From Oscillospiraceae bacterium (GTDB taxonomy: Bacteria > Bacillota > Clostridia > Oscillospirales > CAG-272): DNA of 52,039 nt. Within the stretch, counting starts at the first letter, position 1. Each line of letters opens with the position of its first letter. Made by a program: the position numbers and the translations under genes. Positions 27,520-46,302 of the stretch are shown one piece after another. The stretch is taken from assembly GCA_015063765.1 (NCBI GenBank), contig SVTN01000001.1, forward strand, positions 1-52,039, written 5' to 3'. The notes beneath the pieces were generated by a model. The model was not told the DNA's origin. It did not search any database and saw only the letters and a program-made list of their open reading frames with translations.

Positions 27520-27548
27520 ATTATAGCATAAGTGCGAAGGTTTGTCAA
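27520..27548 (-). promoter_or_regulatory. sigma-A promoter for araB
   Basis: Minus strand TTGACA - 17 nt - TATAAT. Confidence 0.6.
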
Positions 27549-27552
27549 TGAA

Positions 27553-27585
27553 AGAAAAAAGGAAGCTCCGCAAAGAGCTTCCTTT
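27553..27585 (-). terminator. rho-independent terminator of the 487-aa gene
   Basis: AGGAAGCTC-loop-GAGCTTCCT followed by a T-run on the minus strand. Confidence 0.7.
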
Positions 27586-27595
27586 GAACATGTTT

Positions 27596-29059
27596 TTAAA
27601 ATAGTTTCGTTTTTTTGGGTCGATATGCACTGCAGGACAATGAATTAAGCATAGTATCCATATTGCATTTGTTGTGGTTTTCACAATTGAGGCATTTTTC
27701 TCGCGCCTGTTCTTGACGGCGCCATTCCATTCGTTCTTCTTCAAGTCGTTTGCTGATATCCGCCATTCGTCTTTCATCTTCCTTTTTCTTCTCTTCCTGT
27801 TCCTTTTTCCACTTTTCTGTTTGCATTTTTCCTTCTTCGATGGTGCGCTGCAAACTCTCTGTGTACGCGGCTTCCTCTGCAGCGTGTTTGGCGGCGTATT
27901 CCGCTTCAATCTGTTCGTTTCTTTTCTTTCTCTTTTGCAGCCTATCATTTAGAGCGTGCAGAGCTTCTTCTGTGTTCCCACATGTAATCGTTCGCTCGCG
28001 CATAAAAAAGATATCTCTATAATCGGGTTCAATATTTTTAGGCAGAGCAAGTTCCTCGCGTAGCGTTTCGTAATTTTGGACAACGGTGTCACGCTTTTCT
28101 ATGTATGGCTTCAGCACCATGGCAAGCTCTTCCTCAAGCATCGCCGCGGCGGCTTTTGCTTCTTTCCGCAGTTTTTTGCATGCCGCTGCTTTAGCGTCCT
28201 TTATTTCTTGCACTTTTTCCTTGTGCTCTTTTATCGCTTTCTCATATGCGCTTAAAAGAAGGGGATATTCGTTTTGATTAAAGCGTACATTTTCTTTGTT
28301 GATCTTCCTTACGGGAGAAATTTGCCAAATGTCTTTCGTGAGGGTTGCTTTTAAGGCGGGAAAGCCTTCCCTTTTGAGGACGAAAAGGGTGATGAGAGAG
28401 GAGAGAAGCAATAGAGCACTTATCACGAAACCAAATGCAGAGGGCTCTTCATCCTTAAGAAGGACATTAAGCATCTCTCTTCTTACATAGTTAGCGGTTG
28501 AATGCTCATAGATAGCCCCTTGCGCTTTGTCAAAAGCTCCTTCCGTATCAAGCGCAACGACTTCAGTCCAGTGGAGAGATACCCCCGCTTTTTTAAATTC
28601 CTTGCGGACGGGCTCCCAGTCCGCTTCGGTCATTTTGCTAAAGTCGTTTTTGGAGATCAATATGTCGCACCACGCGACGTATGCTTCTCCATAATCTTCC
28701 CGTAGCGATTCGATGCGTGCGCTTTTCACCTGTGAGGAAATGCATATCACAAGGAAAAGGATGCTCAAAAGCAGAGCAACCGCAAACTGAAGTCCTGCCT
28801 TGGTTGCAGATGGAAAGAGAGGCTTTTTCTCCCTCTTCGCAGGTGGCGTTGGCATTTTTTCATCGAGGGACTTTAGTTGGTCATCATATTCTTTTTCTTT
28901 TTTGTAAAGTTTTTTGTTTTCGTTTGACGTTAGTGTGCGCCGCTTCTCGTCTTGTTCCTTGCAGAGCGTACGAATAGCTTCCTTTGCGGCGAAGCATTCT
29001 CTATAACGCGATTCCAATTCGTCCAGCTTTGCTACGTATTCTTCAACTTCTTTTGTCAT
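27596..29059 (-). CDS. hypothetical coiled-coil membrane protein with Cys-rich C-terminal tail
   Basis: 487 aa. Charged heptad-like N- and C-terminal regions. Two hydrophobic segments (LQFAVALLLSILFLVICI, FGFVISALLLLSSLITLFVL). C-terminus CLNCENHNKCN...SCS. I recognise no family. Confidence 0.7.
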   Translation of the reverse strand: MTKEVEEYVAKLDELESRYRECFAAKEAIRTLCKEQDEKRRTLTSNENKKLYKKEKEYDDQLKSLDEKMPTPPAKREKKPLFPSATKAGLQFAVALLLSILFLVICISSQVKSARIESLREDYGEAYVAWCDILISKNDFSKMTEADWEPVRKEFKKAGVSLHWTEVVALDTEGAFDKAQGAIYEHSTANYVRREMLNVLLKDEEPSAFGFVISALLLLSSLITLFVLKREGFPALKATLTKDIWQISPVRKINKENVRFNQNEYPLLLSAYEKAIKEHKEKVQEIKDAKAAACKKLRKEAKAAAAMLEEELAMVLKPYIEKRDTVVQNYETLREELALPKNIEPDYRDIFFMRERTITCGNTEEALHALNDRLQKRKKRNEQIEAEYAAKHAAEEAAYTESLQRTIEEGKMQTEKWKKEQEEKKKEDERRMADISKRLEEERMEWRRQEQAREKCLNCENHNKCNMDTMLNSLSCSAYRPKKTKLF

Positions 29060-29120
29060 TTCTGCCTCCTAAAGGTAAATTTGTTTTGTACAAATAAAAC
29101 GCTTGGATATTGATTATTAT

Positions 29121-29160
29121 ACTCAGGTTTTGAGTGTTTGTCAATACTCAATTTATGAGT
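29121..29160. promoter_or_regulatory. two ACTCA-N5-TGAGT palindromes, candidate XRE operators
   Basis: actcaggttttgagt (29121-29135) and actcaatttatgagt (29146-29160), in the divergent intergenic region between the 487-aa gene and the XRE gene. Confidence 0.45.
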
Positions 29161-29208
29161 GTGCTAAACTTTTTACATACTATAAATTGTGTTTGTAAGG
29201 AGTTTAAA

Positions 29209-29412
29209 ATGAATTACCGAACAAGAATGAGAAATCTGCGGCAAGACAGAGATTTTACTCAAAAAGAGATAGGAAGGCTTATTAACAAATCGCAGCAGGG
29301 GTATAGTCATATTGAAGATGGGAGAGCAGAATTAAAAATAGACGATCTCATTACGCTTTGCAAATTTTACGGTGTCAGCGCCGATTATTTTATAGGATTG
29401 ACGGATAAATAA
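29209..29412 (+). CDS. XRE family helix-turn-helix transcriptional regulator (67 aa)
   Basis: LRQDRDFTQKEIGRLINKSQQGYSHIEDGRAELKIDDLITLCKFYGVSADYFIGL is a canonical HTH_3. TAAGGAG SD precedes ATG 29209. Confidence 0.8.
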   Translation: MNYRTRMRNLRQDRDFTQKEIGRLINKSQQGYSHIEDGRAELKIDDLITLCKFYGVSADYFIGLTDK

Positions 29413-29596
29413 AAAGTCATTCCAGAGTGAAACGTCTACTTGTGCGGAGCGCAACTTCATTGACGCGAAGCATCACTTCATTTACGGAAAAGCTGTAATT
29501 CCATTTGTGTCCGCAAGCGGACAATGATGTTGACCTTTGGTCAAATGATGTTGCGCGCGATTCACGCAAATGAAGATGTTTCCTTCGGACACAAAT

Positions 29597-29628
29597 AAAA
29601 AATCCAAGCCAATCGGCTTGGATTTTTT
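29597..29628. terminator. bidirectional hairpin terminator flanking repeat copy A
   Basis: AAAAAATCCAAGCC-AATC-GGCTTGGATTTTTT. Confidence 0.7.
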
Positions 29629-29629
29629 G

Positions 29630-29778
29630 GAGCTGCTACCCAGAGGCTGCCCTACGGGCAAGAAATCGAACCGGATTCGGCGAAGCCGTGTCGAGAAGTC
29701 AGCAACAAACAGAGCACAACCTGACAAAAGTGGGATGCAAGGCAAAACTTCGCCGAGCGCAGCTCGAATCGGGTAACA
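29630..29778 (-). repeat. 149-bp repeat unit, copy A (ends mimic the tRNA-Thr 3' end)
   Basis: Identical to 30094-30242 at every position compared. The minus-strand 3' end TCTGGGTAGCAGCTC equals the tRNA-Thr T-stem and acceptor 3' strands. Confidence 0.85.
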
Positions 29779-29781
29779 CAA

Positions 29782-29808
29782 AGCCAAGCATAACCTGAAT
29801 TCAATCCG
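29782..29808. repeat. 27-bp inverted repeat, left arm
   Basis: agccaagcataacctgaattcaatccg. Its reverse complement occurs at 30030-30056 with one mismatch. Confidence 0.85.
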
Positions 29809-30029
29809 TTTTAAGGGGCGGATTTCGTGATATGCTTCGCTTTCAATTCTTGTGATATGCTATATAACTGCGAATTTCAAGCATCGCCTCTCGCAAAATC
29901 CGCACCCTTAAAATTCTTCGAACTTAAAAGCACGAAAAATGGAGTGATTTTTTTGTGATGCGAGCGAAGGAAAGTAAGGACTTTTCAAGCGAGAAGCGCG
30001 AAAAAAGCGCCGATTTTTCGGCTTTTAAG

Positions 30030-30056
30030 CGGATTGAATTTAGGTTATGCTTGGCT
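30030..30056. repeat. 27-bp inverted repeat, right arm
   Basis: cggattgaatttaggttatgcttggct. Pairs with 29782-29808 and encloses a 221-bp AT-rich segment. Confidence 0.85.
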
Positions 30057-30090
30057 AAAACAAAGAAGCACTCCCGAAGGAGTGCTTCTG
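30057..30090 (-). terminator. hairpin + U-run following repeat copy B (same sequence as the tRNA terminator)
   Basis: AGAAGCACTCC-CGAA-GGAGTGCTTCT. On the minus strand it is followed by TTGTTTT. Confidence 0.65.
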
Positions 30091-30093
30091 CCC

Positions 30094-30242
30094 GAGCTGC
30101 TACCCAGAGGCTGCCCTACGGGCAAGAAATCGAACCGGATTCGGCGAAGCCGTGTCGAGAAGTCAGCAACAAACAGAGCACAACCTGACAAAAGTGGGAT
30201 GCAAGGCAAAACTTCGCCGAGCGCAGCTCGAATCGGGTAACA
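30094..30242 (-). repeat. 149-bp repeat unit, copy B
   Basis: Identical to copy A. Flanked on both sides by the AGAAGCACTCC/GGAGTGCTTCT hairpin. Confidence 0.85.
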
Positions 30243-30246
30243 GCTC

Positions 30247-30281
30247 CAAAAACAAAGAAGCACTCCCGAAGGAGTGCTTCT
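30247..30281 (-). terminator. rho-independent terminator of tRNA-Thr
   Basis: AGAAGCACTCC-TTCG-GGAGTGCTTCT followed by TTGTTTTT on the minus strand, 2 nt after the CCA end. Confidence 0.8.
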
Positions 30282-30283
30282 GT

Positions 30284-30359
30284 TGGAGCTGCTACCCAGA
30301 TTCGAACTGGGGACCTCATCCTTACCAAGGATGTGCTCTACCAACTGAGCCATAGCAGC
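30284..30359 (-). tRNA. tRNA-Thr(GGU): tRNA-Thr (anticodon GGU), CCA encoded
   Basis: Minus strand GCTGCTA TG GCTC AGTTGGTA GAGC A CATCC TTGGTAA GGATG AGGTC CCCAG TTCGAAT CTGGG TAGCAGC T CCA. Full cloverleaf, 76 nt. Confidence 0.95.
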
Positions 30360-30372
30360 GTCAACAGAAAGG

Positions 30373-30401
30373 ATTATAGCAGAGATTTTTTGTTTTGTCA
30401 A
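30373..30401 (-). promoter_or_regulatory. sigma-A promoter for tRNA-Thr
   Basis: Minus strand TTGACA - 17 nt - TATAAT, 13 nt upstream of the mature tRNA 5' end. Confidence 0.7.
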
Positions 30402-30444
30402 GCCTTTATATCAAAAAAAACAAAAATTTTTTCAAAAGTTTGCA

Positions 30445-31347
30445 TCACGGCGAAAAGACCGTCAGGGCAAGCCCCAAAAGCGAGAAGAGAAGGGCGTAGA
30501 CGGTACATAGCGCGAGAATGGCACCGTGCGAATATCCTCTTTCTGCAAGACGGTGATGCAAATGCGTGCGGTCGGCGCGGAAGGGATTTTTGCCGTGAAG
30601 CAGTCGCAGAGTGAAAACACGGAAGAGGTCAAACAACGGAAGGGCGAAGAGGAGCGGCGTGGCAAGCGAGAAGGTAGGTGTTTCTAAAGAAAAGACGGCA
30701 AGGGAATAGCCGAGAAAAAGCGCGCCCGTATCGCCGAGAAAGGAGCGTGTGATACGCTTTTTTAGGGGGAGATTGTAGGGCAAAAAGCCGATGATCGCAC
30801 CGAAAAGAATCAAAGCGGCGGGATTGCCGCCTGTAAGAAAAAGAGAAAGCAAGCTCACAGAAGCGAGCGTAGCACAAAGTCCGTCCGCACCGTCAATCAG
30901 ATTGAAGGCGTTGACGAGCAGCAAGACCCAAAGGAGAGAAAAAATGTTGTCAAACGGATGGGAAAGCGAGAAGCGAAGGCTGCCAAGCGTGAAGACCTCG
31001 GGAGCAAGACCGAAGGCGGCAGGGAGCGCACACACGGCAAGGAGGGCAGAAAGCTTGACAAGCGGCGAGAGGGGATACAGATCATCGGTCACTCCAAGTG
31101 CCGCAACAAGCGCGCCTCCCGTCAGCCACACCGACGAAGCGGTGCTTTGCGCTATAAAAAGCGAAAGAGGAAGTGCCGTCAAAAGCAAGGCAAGTCCGCC
31201 AAGTCTTGGGGTGGGGCGCGGATGCAAATGCCGTCCTCCGTCGGGATGGTCAACAGCACCGAGCAGTCGGGCGTAACGGATGGAAAGTGGGGCAAGAAGG
31301 GCGCTTAAGAGTGCCCCCGCAAGCAAAAGAAAAACCGAATACTGCAT
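30445..31347 (-). CDS. glycosyltransferase family 4, MraY/WecA-like polyprenyl-phosphate sugar-1-phosphate transferase
   Basis: Multi-TM, with the NAFNLIDGADGL and FLGDTGALFLGY motifs. GGAG SD precedes ATG 31347. Confidence 0.85.
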   Translation of the reverse strand: MQYSVFLLLAGALLSALLAPLSIRYARLLGAVDHPDGGRHLHPRPTPRLGGLALLLTALPLSLFIAQSTASSVWLTGGALVAALGVTDDLYPLSPLVKLSALLAVCALPAAFGLAPEVFTLGSLRFSLSHPFDNIFSLLWVLLLVNAFNLIDGADGLCATLASVSLLSLFLTGGNPAALILFGAIIGFLPYNLPLKKRITRSFLGDTGALFLGYSLAVFSLETPTFSLATPLLFALPLFDLFRVFTLRLLHGKNPFRADRTHLHHRLAERGYSHGAILALCTVYALLFSLLGLALTVFSP

Positions 31348-36596: not shown

Positions 36597-39500
36597 ATGA
36601 AAAAGCAGGTTATCGGTTTTGTTTTGTTGCTTTCGATGATCATCACCGCATTCCCCTTTGCCATGCCCGCCGTCGCGGCGGCGGAGACTCCCGTTGCGGA
36701 GGAGGAGAATTACGTTGATCTCGACACCCTTTACGTAAAGGATGGACTGGTGTCGCATTTTTCCGCGTTTGGAGAAAACGCCTCCACCGTTGATCTTTCG
36801 GCGGGCACGTGGACGGATCTTGTGGCAGGAAAGACGGCAAGCTTCGGTAATAAGTCGGTGTGGTCCGTCAATACCAACGGTTCGGTCGGTTTCGTGACCT
36901 TTCGCGGTGCCCTTGTAGATGGAAAAGCAGATTTTGATACGAAGTCGTATGACAATTATACGACGGCAGCAACACGCCTGAATTTTGGGCTTTCTCTGCT
37001 TCCTGCCTCGGATTTCACCGTGGAATACATGGCAATGTACAAGCCGCTTTACGTTTATGATGCGGATAGTACGGATCATATTGCAAAAGAAGCAGACGGT
37101 ACTCGCATGGAGTCTTTTAACCAGGAGAACTTCTCGGTCGGCTTGCACGTATCTTATCCGATCGACCAGATGGGTTGGTTCACTTCCTACGTTACATATC
37201 TTGATTCCGACAAGCATTATTGGTCGCCTGTGGGAAGTTCGTATGCCGACCGTTCTTCCGGTATTGTCGGGCGCGGTACGGTGCATTGGCGCTTTTTTTG
37301 CCCCACGTGGACACATGGCGGTAACGGATGGCAGACGGTCGGTGGCTTGGGTCACGTTCCGGGCGCGGGTCTGAACAAGACAAGTGACGCTTTCCAAACC
37401 AACAACGTCATCCGTACCTACGGCATTTATCTTGACGAAACCTTGACGGTTGCCGATGACGGTACGCGTACGACAACGGCGTTGTTCGGTCTGTATCGTA
37501 ATGCACAAAAGTATGGTGATAACTCGAACAAGCTGAACTCTACCGCAAATGCGGATTCCGCATGCGGTTATCGCGATATTGACGCGTCGTATCCCGACAA
37601 CAACTTTAATTTCTGGCTCTCCTCGACCCGTGCTACCGATTTCTTCGGCGTGCGTATTTACGACAGAGTTTTGACCGATGCCGAACGAAAGCAGAACCAT
37701 GCAGTTGACATCCTGAACTACTATAAAGTCAAGATTTCCGAGGCTTATGCGGCAGATCAAACGGTCCTTAACCGTATCCTTGACCTTGTGGCAGACGAGG
37801 AGCTTCTTACCGATCCTCTTGCGTACGTTGCAAAGGCGGGTGAGGTGCAAGCCAAGGTGGAAAAATGCTATCCGAGCTTCAATACGCTTGACGAGCTTTA
37901 CGTCAAGGATGGCTTGGAAGCGCTCTATACCGCGTTCGTTGGTGACGGCGCTTTCGTCACCGCAAACGGAAGCGATCTTATTTGGCAAAACCGTCTTTAC
38001 GGCAGCATGGACGCTACCTTTAAAAATACGGGCTGGACCTATAACGCCGAGCGCGGCGGTGTCGGCTACGACCTCATTTACGGACAGATCTCGGCAGAGG
38101 GCGTTTTCTCTTCCTCGTATGCGGGAAACACGTATTCGAACGAAAACAGACTTCAGCTTAGCCTTGATGTTTTGCCGACGGAAGATTTTACGGTAGAGTA
38201 CGTTGCACGCTATACGCTGCAGTATGTCTACGACGCGCGTGTGGACGGGTTGGTATACGCTGTAGATTCGGGCGTTGACGCGAAGCCGAAAAATGATATC
38301 TATACGCCTGTGGATGCCATCGGTTTCCTTTGCTCTTACACGACGTACCGCGGAAACACGCTTGATGGAATTGCCGGAAAAATGCGTTGGAGAACGGTAG
38401 ATGCGGCTGGTTGGAAGACTTGGAGTGCCGATTACGGTATGTCGGGCAATGATCTCAACAACCGTTCCGACGGCAACATCGGCGTTTATGCGATTACGCG
38501 TGACGAAACTGCTACCGAAGCCGCTGTGACGGCACAATACGTGCACTATCTCAATCAAGCCTCCTGCCATGTGATGGATGCGAGCACAGAGATCACGAGC
38601 GGTACCGGCAGATATTTTAATAAGGATGACGATACCGATTTCTACCTTTCCGATAAGCTCGGTACGACCTTTTATGCACTTCGCGTCTATAACCGAGTTC
38701 TTTCTGCGGAGGAACAAAGACAGAACCGTGCGGTAGACCTCTTGCGCTACTATGATATCACCCTTCCCGAAGCGGTGTGGACGGATGAAGATCTGCTTTC
38801 GGCGCTTTACGCATCTGTTGCAACGCAGGGCTTTGCATACGACGCGCTCGATTATGCGGCAAACAAGGCAAAGCTGCAAGCTATCGTGAGCACGGCGATA
38901 ACCCGAGATACGCTGGTCGACAAATTTGCAAGTCCTGAGAATTTGACTGCGCTTTTCACAGCTTATGTTCCCGAAACGGTTGATCTTGCAAATCGCAAAT
39001 GGACCGATCTTGTCGCAGGAAAGACGGCAACCTTCTCCTATGGCGGTACAAACTATTGGCGCGTGAACGCTGATGGGTCGGTAGGTTACACCTCCTTCCG
39101 CGGCGCTTTGTCTGACGGTGTCGTTGCTACTGCATCCACCGATAACTATCAGCAAGCCAACAACCGTTTGCAATTCGGTTTGTCTTTGCTGCCTGAGAGC
39201 GATTTCTCGGTAGAGTATTTTGCAAAATACAAGCCCCTTTATGTGTACGATGCAAACGAAGCCGATAAGATCGCACGAGATGAAAGCGGCAACATGCGTG
39301 AGTCGTACCTTGAAGAGGTGCCCGTATCTCTCCATGTAACCTATCCCATTGACCAGCTCGGCTGGTTCACCTCTATTGTATCGCTTTTAGACACCACAAA
39401 GCACTATTGGAGTCCCACCACCGGCACCGCATATGCAGACAGAACGCACGTTTTGCAGCGCGGAAGTGTGCATTGGTTCTTTGATTGTCCCCAATGGAGT

Positions 39501-42500
39501 GGCGGTAACAATACGTGGTATGTGGACAACGGGGGACACTCGCCGAAGGGTGGTCTAAACCTTCCCGAGGATGCATTCCAGCACAACAATGAGATCAATA
39601 CCTACGGTATTTATCTTGATGAGACCTTGACCGTCGCCGCGGACGAAACAAGAACAACGACGGCGCTTTTCAGCCTTTACAGAAATGCCGCCCTTTATAA
39701 CAGCAGTTCTCATTCCACGAGCGGCACCAAGGGCGCGAGCTATTATGATATCGATACTGCGCTGACGAGCAAGCATAATTTCTGGCTCTCCTCGACCCGC
39801 GCTACCGATTTCTTTACTGTCCGTATCTATGATAAAGCTCTCACCGACGCAGAAAAGAAGCACAATTACGCAGTTGACTTGCTTCTTTATTACGGCGTTA
39901 CTCTGACAGATGAAATGTGGGAGAACGACGCGTTTATGTCGATCCTGCGTGCGTGTGTTCTGGAAGAAAAAGCCGTCACCGATGCTCTGGAAAGAGCCGC
40001 GATCGGTGCGAAGCTCCAGAAAACGGCAGATGCGATCCTTTCCGATCTTTCCAAGGTGAAAGAGATGACCTCGCTCTATGCAAAGAGCGAAAGCCTTAAG
40101 GCACTCTTTACCACCGAAGCTGTGAGCTCGGTTTCGGTAACGGGTGGCTGTTGGCGCGATTATGTCGGTGGCAACACCGCAACGCTCGGCAACGCCGCAA
40201 AGGGCTATTGGAAGATCCGTGAGGACGGCGCTGTCGGCTACGATGTTATCTACGGCGAGATCGACGGAAACGGCTACGGCAATTACACGAGCGAGTCTGC
40301 ATTCAACAACTATTCGGATTACGGAACCCGTCTTGAGTTTGGCATTGATCTTTTGCCGAAGGATGATTTTACCGTCGAATATCTTGCCGAATACCGTCCT
40401 GTTTATGCGGCGGATGTCAACGGTACTCCCTCGGTGGAAGCTTATGAATACGGCGCAACCTTGCCCGGAAGTCAGCAATACGGCGGCAATGCGATAGCTC
40501 CGATCGACCAGCTCGGCTATTTCCATTCCTGGACGACGCAGCGTGACGGTAAATTCTCAAGCACAAGCATTCGCGGCGGTATATATTGGTGCTACGGCGA
40601 TCTGACGAATGCTTCTGCCGGGGAGGGGTGGTCTGCGTATTGGTGGACGCAAGGCTTGTACAAAGCAAATGATATTTTCGAAACCCGTAACAGCATTCGT
40701 GCTTATGCCGTTTCACGCGATGAAACGAAGGATGCATCGGAGCTTGTGACGGCAAAATATACGCTCATTCGCGACCTTGCGACCTTTGCTACCGGCACAA
40801 TGAACAAGGATACGTTTGCGGCAAACAAGAATAATACGAATGCTTATACGCTTGATTTTGCAAATGACGATACGGGCTACTTCTATCTCTCTGAGCGTAT
40901 GTCCACTGACTTCTACACTGTTCGTGTCTACGATGTGGCGCTCACCGAGGAGGATTACGCGCGCAACCGCTTTGTGGATCTTCTGTATTTCTATGATGTG
41001 GAAATTCCCTCGTATCTTACCAAAGAGGAGCTTCTTTTGCAGCTTGCTGCCGAGGCCAAGGATATTGGCTTCGGTGCGGATCCGCTCTCTTACGAAGGAG
41101 GGCGTGCAACGCTTCTTGGTGTGATCCAAGAGCTTGAGGAGATCTCCGCGGAAAATACTCTTTACGTCCGGGAAGGTCTTCAGGCACTCTACACCGCTTT
41201 TGTAGGTGACGGCGATCTTCTTAGTGCATCCGATTCCGGCATGGTATGGCAAAACCGTATTCTCGGTGAAAAGGATGCTACCTTTGAGATGGCAGGCTGG
41301 AGCTATGGCAACGCAATGGGCGGTGTCGGATACGACGTGATCTACGGCACGGTCGATACGGCAAAGGGTACCTTCTCTGCCTCCGGTGCGCAAAACAACT
41401 ATGATCGCGGCAATCGCTTGAATCTCGGTCTTGATCTTTTGCCCACGGAAGACTTTACCCTTGAATACGTGGCGAATTACCGTCCCGTTCTTTCCTATGA
41501 CAGCGCAACGGGCGGGCTTGTTGATGCATATGCAACCGGCATATCCATTACCATGCCGACCGGGACGACGGAGCCGGTGGATACCGTTGGCTTCCTTTCT
41601 TCGTATACGACACAGCACGGCGGAAACTTCTATGTAACGAGCGGCGTTAACGTGCTTGGACTCTTACGTTGGCGCAGTATAGATAAGGCAGGCTATAAAA
41701 CGTGGGAAGCCAACGGTTATGACTGGGGCGGGAATCTTGTGACCGCAAACCGTGCGTCACGTACCATAGAAACGTATGCCATCACACGTGACGAAACCAC
41801 GACGGCAGATGCCGTCACGGCGACCTATACTCATCGCTTAAACGGCGCATCGGTGTGCAGTGCAAATTACAGCTCTGTGAATACCACCGGCGCGAACAGG
41901 TATTACAGCTTTGAGGATGATACCGAGTTCTACCTCTCCTATAAGCTCGGCACCACCTTCTATGCCGTTCGCGTCTATGACCGTGTCTTAAGCGAGGCGG
42001 AGCAGAAGCAGAACCGTATGGCAGATATTTTGAACTATTACGGTGTTGCTATCCCCGACAGCTTCCTTGAAAACCAAGCACGGTATGATTACGTTCTGTC
42101 GCTTTGCGAAACACTTGATTTTGAAGAGGATGCCGCGCGCTACGCGGAGATCAAGAGCACGCTTCAAACCGCAGTCATCGGCAACGATAAGCAGGTGACG
42201 GTCACCGTCGGTGACCGCTCCACCACCGAGATCGTCTACGGCGACAGCTATCTGTTGCCGAAGTCGGTAGAGGGCACCAATCTTTTTGCTTGGCATAAGC
42301 TTGACGCCGAGGGCAACAAGATTGCAAGCTACGAGCCGGGTGCTGTGGTACAGCTTACCGAAAGTGAAACGACCTTCCGCGCGCTCGTTTTGAGCGCTCC
42401 CGAAACGGTGTACGGTGTCAGCATAAAGGTAATGCCCGAGGACGGCTTCGGTATGCGCTTCACCTCGACTGTGGATAAGTCTGAAATGAAGGCGATCATC

Positions 42501-44228
42501 GACGAGTACGGGGGGGAGAACATTCAGCTTTCCATCCTCATCACGCCCAAGGCTTACGTTGACAGAGCAGGCGGCTTCACGCGTGAGAAGCTTCGAAATT
42601 ACGTGGTTAGCAACAGTGAGAGCTCTGCGAATGCTTACATTGAAATTCAGTCGTACGGCTTCTACAAGGTGGACGAGGACGTTTGCACGATTGCGGGCAC
42701 CATTTATAAGTTCTCGGATATCACCATCGCAAAGAATCCCGCATTTGCCGCCATCGGATGTATTGACGTAGATACCGACGGCGACGGCACCTATGATAAG
42801 ACGGTGTACGGCAGCTTTGCAAGCTCTACCGCACGCTCGCCGAAGAAGACGGTGGAGAGCGTTCGTTATATGGGGCTCGAAATGACCAACACACAGAAGG
42901 AATGGGTGGATGATTTCTTGAAAAATTACACCGATAGAACCTATGGGCAAGAGGGCGACAAGACGGTAGAAGAGCAGAGAGGGGAAATTCAGGATGCCTT
43001 TGATGCGGCAATGAATACCACCGTCGATTATACGGTTCATTCCTTTGCCGAAAACGAGGTCGACGAGAAATATGCGCACATTCAGGCAATCAGCTTTGAC
43101 GGGCTTGATGTCGGAGGCAAGAAGACGCGCATCTTTGCTTATGTCGGACTTCCCGAGGGGGCTTCTCCCGAAAACCCCGTGCCTGCGATGGTGCTCGTGC
43201 ACGGCGGCGGCGGTCACGCTTATATGGAGTGGGTGCGCCTTTGGAACGAACGCGGCTATGCCGCCATCGCAATGGAAAACGTAGGGCATTTCCCGGTAAC
43301 GCCCGGTGCGGGTGTTACCGATAGCAATGCAGTCACGGCGCGGGAATTTCCGCAGTATATCCTTGATGTCATTGATGAAGAGGAATACGTGATCGCACCC
43401 GACCGTGTGATGAAGAACTCTTATGCCGAAATCGACGAGCATTGGCAGTATCACGGTCTTTCCGCCGTTATTCTTTCTCATAATGTCCTTCGTCAGAATG
43501 CATCTGTAGATGCTTCTCGCATCGGTACGATCGGCGTTTCGTGGGGTGGAACGATGGTCTCGCAGGTTATCGGCTATGATACTCGCTTTGCCTTTGCAAT
43601 TCCCGTTTACGGTACGGCGTATATCTCCGAGCCCGAGCGTCCCTTTATCGGTAGCAATTACGTAGACGATCTTTGGGCGGCAGAGCGCAATCTTGACAAC
43701 TTCAAGAATCCTATCATGTGGCTCGCATGGGCAGACGATAACAACTTTGTTATGAGCTCTTATACGAAGTCCTATTTGCACTCGCGCAAGAATAATCCAA
43801 AGACGACGCTCGTTGTGCTCGCTGACTGGCGGCACAGCCACAACCAGACGTGGAATAAGGAGCATGGCTACGCCTTTGCCGATTCGATCTGCTTCCCTGA
43901 GGCATCGGATTATGCAAGCTTCATTTGGGAGCCGTCGGGTCAGAATGCCTTGAGTCAGGTGCTTCTTCCCGAGGGTGCAACGGATGTTTCGGTACGCTTC
44001 CACTATTTGACCGAGCCGATGGTTTACAAAACCTATAACAAGTATTTTGAAAGCAGCTGGCTGGCAGAAAGCTGGAAGACGGACAACAAAACGCTCACGA
44101 TCGATCCGCTGACGGGTAAGATCACGGGAACCGTGCCCAAGGGGGTACGCTCCTATTACATCAGCGTTCTTTATACCGTGAACGGTAAGGCGCTGGAGGT
44201 CAGCTCGAGCTTCGTTTATATCCGTTAA
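36597..44228 (+). CDS. 2543-aa secreted multi-domain protein: five LamG/concanavalin-like modules plus a C-terminal alpha/beta-hydrolase (acetyl-xylan-esterase-like) domain
   Basis: Signal peptide MKKQVIGFVLLLSMIITAFPFAMPAVAAAE. Five roughly 340-380-aa modules each end in a motif like DFF.VRIYDR.L...E..QN..VD.L.YY. The C-terminal region has VLVHGGGG and GVSWGG (G-x-S-x-G). Confidence 0.85.
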   Translation: MKKQVIGFVLLLSMIITAFPFAMPAVAAAETPVAEEENYVDLDTLYVKDGLVSHFSAFGENASTVDLSAGTWTDLVAGKTASFGNKSVWSVNTNGSVGFVTFRGALVDGKADFDTKSYDNYTTAATRLNFGLSLLPASDFTVEYMAMYKPLYVYDADSTDHIAKEADGTRMESFNQENFSVGLHVSYPIDQMGWFTSYVTYLDSDKHYWSPVGSSYADRSSGIVGRGTVHWRFFCPTWTHGGNGWQTVGGLGHVPGAGLNKTSDAFQTNNVIRTYGIYLDETLTVADDGTRTTTALFGLYRNAQKYGDNSNKLNSTANADSACGYRDIDASYPDNNFNFWLSSTRATDFFGVRIYDRVLTDAERKQNHAVDILNYYKVKISEAYAADQTVLNRILDLVADEELLTDPLAYVAKAGEVQAKVEKCYPSFNTLDELYVKDGLEALYTAFVGDGAFVTANGSDLIWQNRLYGSMDATFKNTGWTYNAERGGVGYDLIYGQISAEGVFSSSYAGNTYSNENRLQLSLDVLPTEDFTVEYVARYTLQYVYDARVDGLVYAVDSGVDAKPKNDIYTPVDAIGFLCSYTTYRGNTLDGIAGKMRWRTVDAAGWKTWSADYGMSGNDLNNRSDGNIGVYAITRDETATEAAVTAQYVHYLNQASCHVMDASTEITSGTGRYFNKDDDTDFYLSDKLGTTFYALRVYNRVLSAEEQRQNRAVDLLRYYDITLPEAVWTDEDLLSALYASVATQGFAYDALDYAANKAKLQAIVSTAITRDTLVDKFASPENLTALFTAYVPETVDLANRKWTDLVAGKTATFSYGGTNYWRVNADGSVGYTSFRGALSDGVVATASTDNYQQANNRLQFGLSLLPESDFSVEYFAKYKPLYVYDANEADKIARDESGNMRESYLEEVPVSLHVTYPIDQLGWFTSIVSLLDTTKHYWSPTTGTAYADRTHVLQRGSVHWFFDCPQWSGGNNTWYVDNGGHSPKGGLNLPEDAFQHNNEINTYGIYLDETLTVAADETRTTTALFSLYRNAALYNSSSHSTSGTKGASYYDIDTALTSKHNFWLSSTRATDFFTVRIYDKALTDAEKKHNYAVDLLLYYGVTLTDEMWENDAFMSILRACVLEEKAVTDALERAAIGAKLQKTADAILSDLSKVKEMTSLYAKSESLKALFTTEAVSSVSVTGGCWRDYVGGNTATLGNAAKGYWKIREDGAVGYDVIYGEIDGNGYGNYTSESAFNNYSDYGTRLEFGIDLLPKDDFTVEYLAEYRPVYAADVNGTPSVEAYEYGATLPGSQQYGGNAIAPIDQLGYFHSWTTQRDGKFSSTSIRGGIYWCYGDLTNASAGEGWSAYWWTQGLYKANDIFETRNSIRAYAVSRDETKDASELVTAKYTLIRDLATFATGTMNKDTFAANKNNTNAYTLDFANDDTGYFYLSERMSTDFYTVRVYDVALTEEDYARNRFVDLLYFYDVEIPSYLTKEELLLQLAAEAKDIGFGADPLSYEGGRATLLGVIQELEEISAENTLYVREGLQALYTAFVGDGDLLSASDSGMVWQNRILGEKDATFEMAGWSYGNAMGGVGYDVIYGTVDTAKGTFSASGAQNNYDRGNRLNLGLDLLPTEDFTLEYVANYRPVLSYDSATGGLVDAYATGISITMPTGTTEPVDTVGFLSSYTTQHGGNFYVTSGVNVLGLLRWRSIDKAGYKTWEANGYDWGGNLVTANRASRTIETYAITRDETTTADAVTATYTHRLNGASVCSANYSSVNTTGANRYYSFEDDTEFYLSYKLGTTFYAVRVYDRVLSEAEQKQNRMADILNYYGVAIPDSFLENQARYDYVLSLCETLDFEEDAARYAEIKSTLQTAVIGNDKQVTVTVGDRSTTEIVYGDSYLLPKSVEGTNLFAWHKLDAEGNKIASYEPGAVVQLTESETTFRALVLSAPETVYGVSIKVMPEDGFGMRFTSTVDKSEMKAIIDEYGGENIQLSILITPKAYVDRAGGFTREKLRNYVVSNSESSANAYIEIQSYGFYKVDEDVCTIAGTIYKFSDITIAKNPAFAAIGCIDVDTDGDGTYDKTVYGSFASSTARSPKKTVESVRYMGLEMTNTQKEWVDDFLKNYTDRTYGQEGDKTVEEQRGEIQDAFDAAMNTTVDYTVHSFAENEVDEKYAHIQAISFDGLDVGGKKTRIFAYVGLPEGASPENPVPAMVLVHGGGGHAYMEWVRLWNERGYAAIAMENVGHFPVTPGAGVTDSNAVTAREFPQYILDVIDEEEYVIAPDRVMKNSYAEIDEHWQYHGLSAVILSHNVLRQNASVDASRIGTIGVSWGGTMVSQVIGYDTRFAFAIPVYGTAYISEPERPFIGSNYVDDLWAAERNLDNFKNPIMWLAWADDNNFVMSSYTKSYLHSRKNNPKTTLVVLADWRHSHNQTWNKEHGYAFADSICFPEASDYASFIWEPSGQNALSQVLLPEGATDVSVRFHYLTEPMVYKTYNKYFESSWLAESWKTDNKTLTIDPLTGKITGTVPKGVRSYYISVLYTVNGKALEVSSSFVYIR
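36717..42190 (+). repeat. five tandem intragenic protein-module repeats (approximate boundaries 36717, 37881, 38906, 40056, 41146, 42190)
   Basis: Modules 1 and 3 resemble each other closely (type A), as do modules 2 and 5 (type B). Module 4 is intermediate. Similarity between modules 1 and 3 is visible at the DNA level around the WLSSTRATDFF motif. Confidence 0.7.
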
Positions 44229-46205: not shown

Positions 46206-46302
46206 GTGCAGCGGGATGCGACGGTGCCACCGCGGAAAAACCTTCGTTCCCTGGGCAACTCCCCGTCCCAAGGACACTTGACGCGGCAACGTCTACTCTG
46301 TT
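46206..46302 (-). promoter_or_regulatory. THF (tetrahydrofolate) riboswitch aptamer
   Basis: Minus strand ACAGAGUAGACGUUGCCGCGUCAAGUGUCCUUGGGACGGGGAGUUGCCCAGGGAACGAAGGUUUUUCCGCGGUGGCACCGUCGCAUCCCGCUGCAC. It aligns block-for-block with the Eubacterium siraeum THF aptamer as I recall it (AGAGUAGA, CGCGU.AAGUGU, GGGA, ACGAAG, GCGGUG, GCAUCCGCU). Confidence 0.85.

Follow-up and report, generated by a model that had tools for sequence, protein, structure and literature searches.

A perfect repeat behind tRNA-Thr in an uncultured Oscillospiraceae bacterium as a candidate recombination-prone trailer array

What is a perfect 149-bp direct repeat, whose ends resemble the 3' end of the neighboring tRNA, doing directly behind a tRNA gene? 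The question is raised by a stretch of 52,039 nucleotides (positions 1 to 52,039 of contig SVTN01000001.1, assembly GCA_015063765.1) of an uncultured Oscillospiraceae bacterium, the whole of which is referred to here as the window. An original prediction had described the repeat next to tRNA-Thr and left three explanations side by side: stacked attL/attR-type scars of tRNA-targeting elements, a foldback or miniature inverted-repeat transposable element (MITE), and a structured RNA gene present in two copies. The explanation favored here, to which we assign a probability of roughly 55%, is a tRNA-trailer repeat array that would expand and contract by homologous recombination. The feature is real, non-random, local and strain-variable, and it carries no evidence of a function or mobility of its own.

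Anatomy of the tRNA-Thr trailer

The repeat search of the window has recovered the two copies, 29630-29778 and 30094-30242, as a 149-nt direct repeat at an offset of 464 with the claimed perfection (100% identity). The extent of the repeat unit had to be revised, since the 464-bp tandem period, foldback included, is the larger unit: a recent 464-bp tandem duplication (1.3 periods) has taken place in the 3' trailer of tRNA-Thr(GGU), and the 149-bp repeat is no more than its overlap, whereas the non-overlapping part of the period, consisting of a second copy of the tRNA terminator and a 275-bp foldback, is single-copy. Because the array comprises only 1.3 copies, it has been left unreported by Tandem Repeats Finder. 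Read from the tRNA along the minus strand, the order is terminator T1, unit B, terminator T1', foldback, unit A and terminator T2:

30373..30401, minus strand: promoter of tRNA-Thr, TTGACA and TATAAT with a 17-nt spacer and a TG upstream, sigma-70-type, 12/12 consensus match
30284..30359, minus strand: tRNA-Thr(GGU) gene, found by ARAGORN and Rfam (RF00005, 71.6 bits)
30256..30281, minus strand: T1, terminator of the tRNA, 11-bp stem with UUCG loop and a tail TTGTTTTT to ~30249 (terminator search)
30094..30247, minus strand: unit B, complete, 154 nt (GGAGCTG...GCAGCTC), 185 bits against its own model
30057..30089, minus strand: T1', exact copy of the T1 hairpin (30064-30089) with the tail TTGTTTT (repeat and terminator searches)
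29782..30056, unstranded: 275-bp foldback, MITE-like, with 33-nt inverted termini at 29782-29814 and 30024-30056 (repeat search, fold)
29630..29778, minus strand: unit A, 149 nt, 100% identical to unit B
29597..29628, both strands: T2, bidirectional terminator, 14-bp stem with T-runs on both strands (terminator search)

The tRNA-Thr(GGU) gene is the only tRNA that ARAGORN and Rfam have detected in the window, and in unit A the 5-6 nt that open the unit (GGAGC) are missing. The arrangement is not an assembly artefact: T2, unit A, the foldback, T1' and the beginning of unit B are all found at 100% identity on an independent JGI contig (L091).

The relation of the unit to the tRNA is visible at both of its ends. 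The 15-mer GAGCTGCTACCCAGA occurs exactly three times, at 29630, 30094 and 30286, and TCTGGGTAGCAGCTC (window 30286-30300) represents the last 15 nt of the tRNA before CA, a core that is repeated at the end of each unit. This direct match to the tRNA 3' end scores 30 as compared with a maximum of 22 among shuffled sequences (0/500 shuffles); in unit A the identity covers 17 nt (29628-29644) and includes the CA of CCA, and in unit B it covers 15 nt (30094-30108). At the opposite end, the first 26 nt of the unit (30223-30248 in unit B) correspond to the reverse complement of the tRNA 3' end, with 24 identities and one gap (score 35, 0/500 shuffles). Both the 15-nt identity and the inverted mimic that had been proposed have thus been recovered well beyond chance, and the matches indicate that both unit ends derive from, or mimic, the 3' end of tRNA-Thr. 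The predicted fold likewise bears out the proposed self-closure of the unit, by a terminal helix of 12-14 bp (minimum free energy -65.2 kcal/mol, z = -3.5), and the inverted-repeat search has located the suggested internal helix CGGCGAAG/CTTCGCCG. The small hairpin needs a correction: it reads TGCCC-GTA-GGGCA, with a loop of 3 nt (GTA), and not TGCCC-GTAG-GGGCA. Each unit is followed by a terminator in the way that had been described, T1' behind unit B being the same hairpin as T1 and T2 behind unit A a different one. Together, the 15-mer and T1' repeat the tRNA 3' end and its trailer over 52 nt, in direct orientation and with 94% identity.

Two further resemblances to the tRNA have been noted within the unit. 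Beyond the first 26 nt, a 12-mer, AGGTTGTGCTCT, matches the reverse-complemented D-arm (14/1000 shuffles). A complete inverted pseudo-tRNA-Thr in the 5' half is kept as a possibility only, the semi-global alignment being not significant (592/2000). The 3' half can be read as CCGGTTCGAT, a 20-nt hairpin and then TCTGGGTAGCAGCTC, i.e., as a tRNA 3' end split by an insertion; the upstream T-loop-like piece is not statistically significant alone in the present unit.

The spacer between the two copies, which lies within the second 464-bp period, differs in kind from the units. Its 33-nt termini are 91% complementary, and it folds from end to end with z = -8.9. A relative of half its length, 80% identical, has been found in a sister species (L009:8055-8200), where it is located between a glycosyltransferase gene and the tRNA-Thr promoter, upstream of this promoter and not downstream of the tRNA. 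The inverted termini, the end-to-end fold and the relative at another site are shared with MITEs and REPIN-type repeats; unlike in those, copies are few (one in the 52-kb window, and one relative in related DNA amounting to ~1 Mb), no target-site duplication has been identified, and the 149-nt unit itself is not dispersed. The real foldback element here is this spacer, which the original prediction had not described, and not the 149-nt unit.

Alleles among sister strains and distribution of the unit

Is the second copy a fixed property of the organism? Sister alleles, defined as contigs encoding an identical TrpRS, XRE or ORFan protein (neighbors of the array, described below), show that strains of the same uncultured gut Clostridia species possess 0.5, 1, 1.5 or 2 units, an array with a 190-bp period, or an inverted module:

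L092/L090: tRNA, T1, one unit, T2, XRE and ORFan, 100% identical to the window (779/779 and 276/276 nt)
L001 and L004: no more than the initial 83-86 nt of the unit, joined directly to another FGGY promoter
L003: a complete unit and T1', then 6 nt from the start of the foldback and part of a 5' half that has an L001-type junction
L088: two tandem units with a 190-nt period, beside unrelated housekeeping genes
L002/L006: the entire 370-bp module of promoter, tRNA, T1, unit and T1' in inverted orientation, with the same genes on either side
L093: foldback, T1', unit and foldback, on a scaffold with an N gap

The allele of L092/L090 equals the window minus exactly one 464-bp period, and the two copies of the window would differ from this co-existing one-copy allele by a single recombination event between repeats. 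Two assemblies have contigs that end inside the array, as expected because of its repeats. From the allele series and the broken contigs together, the locus is therefore regarded as a recombination hot spot at which the number of units is polymorphic within the species. Among seven alleles, none shows the tRNA followed by T2 in the manner of a clean empty site, and the shortest retains the 5' half of the unit.

The inverted module, at L002:4527-4896 and L006:4010-4291, corresponds to window positions 30057-30426. In the strains that carry it, the last codons of the glycosyltransferase gene are altered (296 vs 300 aa), and the inversion breakpoints are devoid of obvious long inverted repeats, only A/T-rich runs of the TTTGTTTT type being present.

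As regards its distribution, the unit has been found by blastn, nhmmer and a covariance model built from five variants at the tRNA-Thr locus only, and in this species group only; all copies lie either in the tRNA-Thr trailer or at the end of a contig, where such a location would fit. The 80 TrpRS-anchored loci examined in related species (0.93 Mb) have revealed neither the unit nor a structural homologue, and the unit does not recur in the remainder of the 52-kb window. The source is an uncultured, Oscillospirales-like member of the gut Clostridia, and the nearest species representative has a TrpRS identity of 87%. A distant-mode blastn search of 29590-30290 has returned no match in phage and plasmid collections, and pattern scans of viral contigs have given none with a 21-mer and a 25-mer of the 3' half of the unit, nor with the foldback terminus. 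A degenerate 21-mer of the 5' half does occur in 8 viral contigs (L101-L108); these matches are attributed to chance, as all of them lie inside one high-GC phage structural gene and the contigs have no similarity beyond the 21-mer pattern. The metagenome pattern scan, which is non-exhaustive and missed the pattern-containing JGI contig L091, has returned L088 only. No unit having been encountered beyond the locus in the collections searched, it is therefore not a dispersed repeat, and the foldback or MITE reading of the 149-bp unit, for which no copy is available outside the locus in the window, the 80 loci or the viral, phage and plasmid sets, has been abandoned.

The favored explanation connects the observed anatomy with the observed series of alleles in the following way. 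The building block is a locus-specific module of ~190 nt, made of a palindromic unit of ~154 nt and a terminator. The tRNA 3' end is copied at both ends of the unit, inverted over 26 nt at the start and direct over 15-17 nt at the finish, and a copy of the tRNA's own terminator comes next. The direct repeats of 52 nt and 149 nt exist at the locus because the tRNA and every module share the same ending of 15-mer and terminator, and they would serve as substrates for unequal crossing-over, replication slippage and gene conversion, by which modules could be added or removed and the array kept uniform within a strain. Recombination within the trailer array would therefore explain why the copies are perfectly identical and also why the strains differ in the way the alleles show. 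From the alleles we infer this mechanism, together with the absence of a dedicated function; the array itself would appear to be neither an independent gene nor a transposable element.

Recombination weighed against integration, mobility and a trailer RNA

Integrase-mediated insertion is classically recognized by direct repeats of a tRNA 3' end, and tRNA genes as integration sites, ICESt1-type elements, cis-mobilizable remnants and tandem accretion form the general background for a comparison with att repeats. According to an explanation along these lines, the 15-mers would be att cores of one or more tyrosine-integrase elements targeting the 3' end of tRNA-Thr, and the inter-core segment of ~177 nt a decayed, cis-mobilizable and integrase-less remnant, with tandem copies produced by accretion or by later recombination. 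The locus does share with tRNA-targeting elements that direct tRNA 3' repeats, three in number and stacked, bracket non-core DNA at a hypervariable site, and that the last repeat has a complete 3' end with the full CCA and is then followed by a different downstream sequence and terminator, as a displaced native end would be. The stretch from the tRNA to the FGGY kinase gene, a hot spot that occurs in three different haplotypes, one of them with a low-GC islet of XRE and ORFan genes, points in the same direction, as does a related species with a 25/26-nt partial copy of the tRNA-Lys 3' end downstream of its tRNA-Lys.

The bracketed segments, in contrast to such elements, measure 177 and 449 bp and are copies of each other, and cores 1 and 2 precede the same terminator, which amounts to a tandem duplication and not to independent insertions. 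The islet lies outside the core-flanked segments, and an att site would not be expected to include an inverted tRNA mimic of 26 nt. The window ORFs scanned with Pfam, all but the 2543-aa one, and the sister-contig gene tables contain no integrase, excisionase, transposase, reverse transcriptase or other mobile-element gene, so that the stated absence of integrase, transposase and reverse transcriptase holds for every Pfam-scanned ORF and for those tables. The search for a parent element among phages, plasmids, viral contigs and related loci has been negative (the DNA itself was not run against GTDB genomes), and no clean empty site has been seen in the sister strains. The proposal of stacked scars survives in part: site-specific integration is, beside a local duplication, a possible origin of the first duplication, and it does not explain the perfect repeat, given that no intact element or empty site is seen and the copies are each other's duplicates, a tandem duplication or deletion polymorphism and not two separate scars. 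As the explanation of the array as a whole we consider it unlikely.

Far less probable still is that the unit would be a non-autonomous mobile element, either MITE-like or a folded single-stranded-DNA att site, moved by a recombinase encoded elsewhere and with inverted termini that mimic its tRNA-Thr target. Such an element would be compatible with the imperfect inverted termini of 12-14 bp, extendable to arms of ~38 nt, with the variable copy number and tandem arrays, and with a single-strand fold that rebuilds a duplex resembling the 3' end of the tRNA gene. All copies, however, are confined to the tRNA-Thr trailer or a compatible contig end, dispersed copies and target-site duplications have not been found, and the context includes neither a single-stranded-DNA phage nor a recombinase.

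Could the unit instead be transcribed for a purpose? On the minus strand upstream of the array, no promoter-like site has been detected except the tRNA promoter. Between the tRNA and unit B stands T1, with its GC-rich stem and U-tract, terminators bracket both units on this strand, and T2, at which the array as well as the convergent XRE gene end, prevents transcription from entering on the plus strand. RNA from the array could accordingly arise, as it seems, only by read-through of the tRNA terminator, and the canonical terminator that separates tRNA and unit argues that little read-through is to be expected. In the predicted read-through transcript, the 3' half of the tRNA pairs with the 5' end of the unit in a hairpin of ~37 bp that encloses T1.

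Known RNA families have offered no candidate. Besides the tRNA and a THF riboswitch elsewhere, the Rfam searches (whole window at the gathering threshold; 29300-30500 at E<=10) have returned noise-level miRNA-type hits only; ARAGORN has found neither a tmRNA nor an extra tRNA. These searches agree with the original prediction, in which no known family could be matched. Among five close variants, RNAalifold has yielded a covariation term of +1.48 with 1/52 pairs compensatory, a comparison of low power. The three outer helices are invariant across these variants and, because they never vary, uninformative, and the substitutions cluster in an interior of ~58 nt without conserved pairing.

The closest known precedent is found in Escherichia coli K-12, where tRNA-Tyr at tyrT/tyrV is followed by units of 178 bp, each ending in the last 19 nt of the tRNA. 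The downstream-copy scan has located 15-mer copies of the tRNA 3' end at +160, +338 and +516, and one unit of the region is annotated as the small RNA RttR (rttR). The RtT RNA of E. coli is treated in a passage of PMC3318445 that cites Bosl and Kersten (1991). Both systems share tandem units directly downstream of a tRNA gene on the same strand, units whose final nucleotides copy the tRNA 3' end exactly (19 nt in E. coli, 15-17 nt here), and a variable copy number, with the units as recombination substrates. They differ in that an intrinsic terminator follows the tRNA and each unit here, an inverted copy of the tRNA 3' end opens each unit and makes it a palindrome, a foldback is inserted in the array, and a tpr-like ORF is missing. 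The covariance model RF00391 has recognized four matches in E. coli K-12 (133-137 bits) as a positive control, and has found nothing here, neither over the full window with the gathering threshold applied nor in 29300-30500 with E<=10; conversely, the covariance model of the unit has given no match in the E. coli tyrT region. By these comparisons the trailer array is analogous in architecture to the 178-bp/RtT repeats of E. coli tyrT, not homologous to them.

In the E. coli K-12 tyrV trailer (L109:380-1040), the RtT units resemble the 3' 35 nt of tRNA-Tyr (CTTCGA..AAGGTTCGA...AATCCTTCCCCCACCACCA), a stretch that is split in the RtT unit by a T-loop insertion of ~65 nt.

By analogy, a read-through precursor might release a stable, processed RNA of ~155 nt, with a 5' end antisense to the tRNA-Thr 3' end and a 3' end mimic trimmed by the tRNA 3'-processing machinery, which would act on tRNA-Thr maturation or as a decoy. 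Its closed fold with the 12-14-bp terminal helix (z = -3.5), the retention of helices while the interior drifts, the possession of a terminator by every unit, the ~37-bp hairpin between tRNA and unit formed in silico, and the production of RtT RNA from an equivalent architecture in E. coli (rttR annotation; the passage in PMC3318445) would all be in keeping with this. Against it stand the lack of an own promoter and the strong canonical terminator ahead of the unit, the scarcity of compensatory pairs, the strains L001 and L004, which lack the 3' half of the unit and its terminator, the missing CCA of copy B, the confinement to one species group, and the lack of a match to RF00391 (positive control passed) or any other Rfam family. 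The RNA-gene reading has consequently not been upheld on account of the promoter, the T1 barrier, the absent covariation and the strains with only a 5' half, and a processed RNA of this kind appears quite unlikely. A more specific version, namely an independently evolved RtT-like stable RNA of the gut Clostridia lineage that would derive from tRNA-Thr read-through and sequester or mark unterminated pre-tRNA-Thr, or act as a decoy, is rated a shade more doubtful again. If it were true, the ~37-bp duplex would be a plausible RNase III substrate, a decoy would target enzymes that bind the tRNA 3' end, and copy-number variation would tune the dose.

The expansion and contraction of a trailer array by recombination has itself to be weighed against four observations that do not fit it easily. 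The palindromic arms are far better conserved than the interior, which would also fit a functional hairpin at the RNA or DNA level. When the window is compared with L088, the unit is 100% identical over its last 60 nt and differs by ~15-20% in its 5' half, a pattern that could mean selection on the 3' part and not conversion or recent transfer. The end of the last core copy coincides with CCA, and the unrelated T2 comes next, which has an attR-like look. Finally, the partial tRNA-Lys copy of L009, 138 nt downstream of its tRNA and with a terminator of its own (0/1000 shuffles), hints by analogy at a recurrent process, e.g., site-specific integration, and not a one-off duplication.

The segment of L009 (8427-8720) belongs to a related species with 85% TrpRS identity and contains an operon of tRNA-Thr and then tRNA-Lys. 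Behind tRNA-Lys follow a terminator, ~130 nt, the 25/26-nt direct copy of the tRNA-Lys 3' end and a second terminator, and an inverted 10-mer of the T-loop region is present near the start of the segment; its layout is analogous to that of the unit, with no sequence homology.

Surrounding islet and significance of the array

On the upstream side of the tRNA, the window encodes a family-4 glycosyltransferase, TrpRS and pyruvate:ferredoxin oxidoreductase. Beyond T2 follow an XRE regulator and a divergent ORFan in a low-GC stretch, and then an FGGY sugar kinase. The stretch constitutes a strain-specific islet of ~2.1 kb (27529-29629, GC 0.43 vs about 0.53) that adjoins the array, with two genes:

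29209..29412, plus strand: XRE-family helix-turn-helix gene, 67 aa, CapH-like, part of the islet context and not of the repeat
27596..29059, minus strand: ORFan, 487 aa, with two hydrophobic segments and rich in coiled coil, divergent from the XRE gene

The ORFan gene is equipped with a perfect promoter, a ribosome-binding site and a terminator. Its 487-aa product has no match in Pfam, PHROG or PADLOC, and its sole homologue among 5.8 billion proteins is one fragment with 97% identity; with no match in these three collections, the cargo of the islet has been dismissed as a pointer to a mobile element. The XRE and ORFan genes may represent a regulator-plus-effector, defence-like pair. Between the XRE stop and T2 (29413-29596), short hairpins (GTCCGC/GCGGAC, TTGACC/GGTCAA, TTGCG.../CGCAA) are interleaved with a repeated AATGATGTTG-like motif, a run that may represent an operator array or else a further small structured element within the islet.

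Strains with identical TrpRS differ in the promoter region of the FGGY kinase gene, of which there are at least three unrelated versions (window 27520-27560; L001:7262-7340; L002:4896-5065), with homology restored only from the -10 box or the ribosome-binding site onwards; the spacer from tRNA to kinase has therefore been replaced wholesale between strains. An exact look-up of the kinase has found no identical product on record, and that of the GT4 glycosyltransferase nothing besides the already known JGI contig.

Farther away, the THF riboswitch (RF01831, 80.9 bits; 46207-46302, minus strand) is located upstream of genes for an ECF-transporter S-component and a Mur-ligase-family protein, the latter probably folylpolyglutamate synthase; the arrangement is an ordinary one. 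The 2543-aa ORF (36597-44228, plus strand) has a faint Pfam match to dienelactone hydrolase (DLH) on record in the sister-contig table.

What the array means follows from the favored explanation. For the assembly of metagenome-assembled genomes it calls for caution, because contigs break here, and the same applies to the reading of partial tRNA copies as att sites. The layout of tyrT and RtT is not unique to enterobacteria and has originated independently in Clostridia, with an added arm antisense to the tRNA. Should the unit be expressed, it would provide a second, unrelated system for the role of RtT-type trailer RNAs, a question dating from 1991. The locus would offer a natural example of a tRNA 3' end and its terminator seeding a recombination-prone array, with a series of alleles in one uncultured species.

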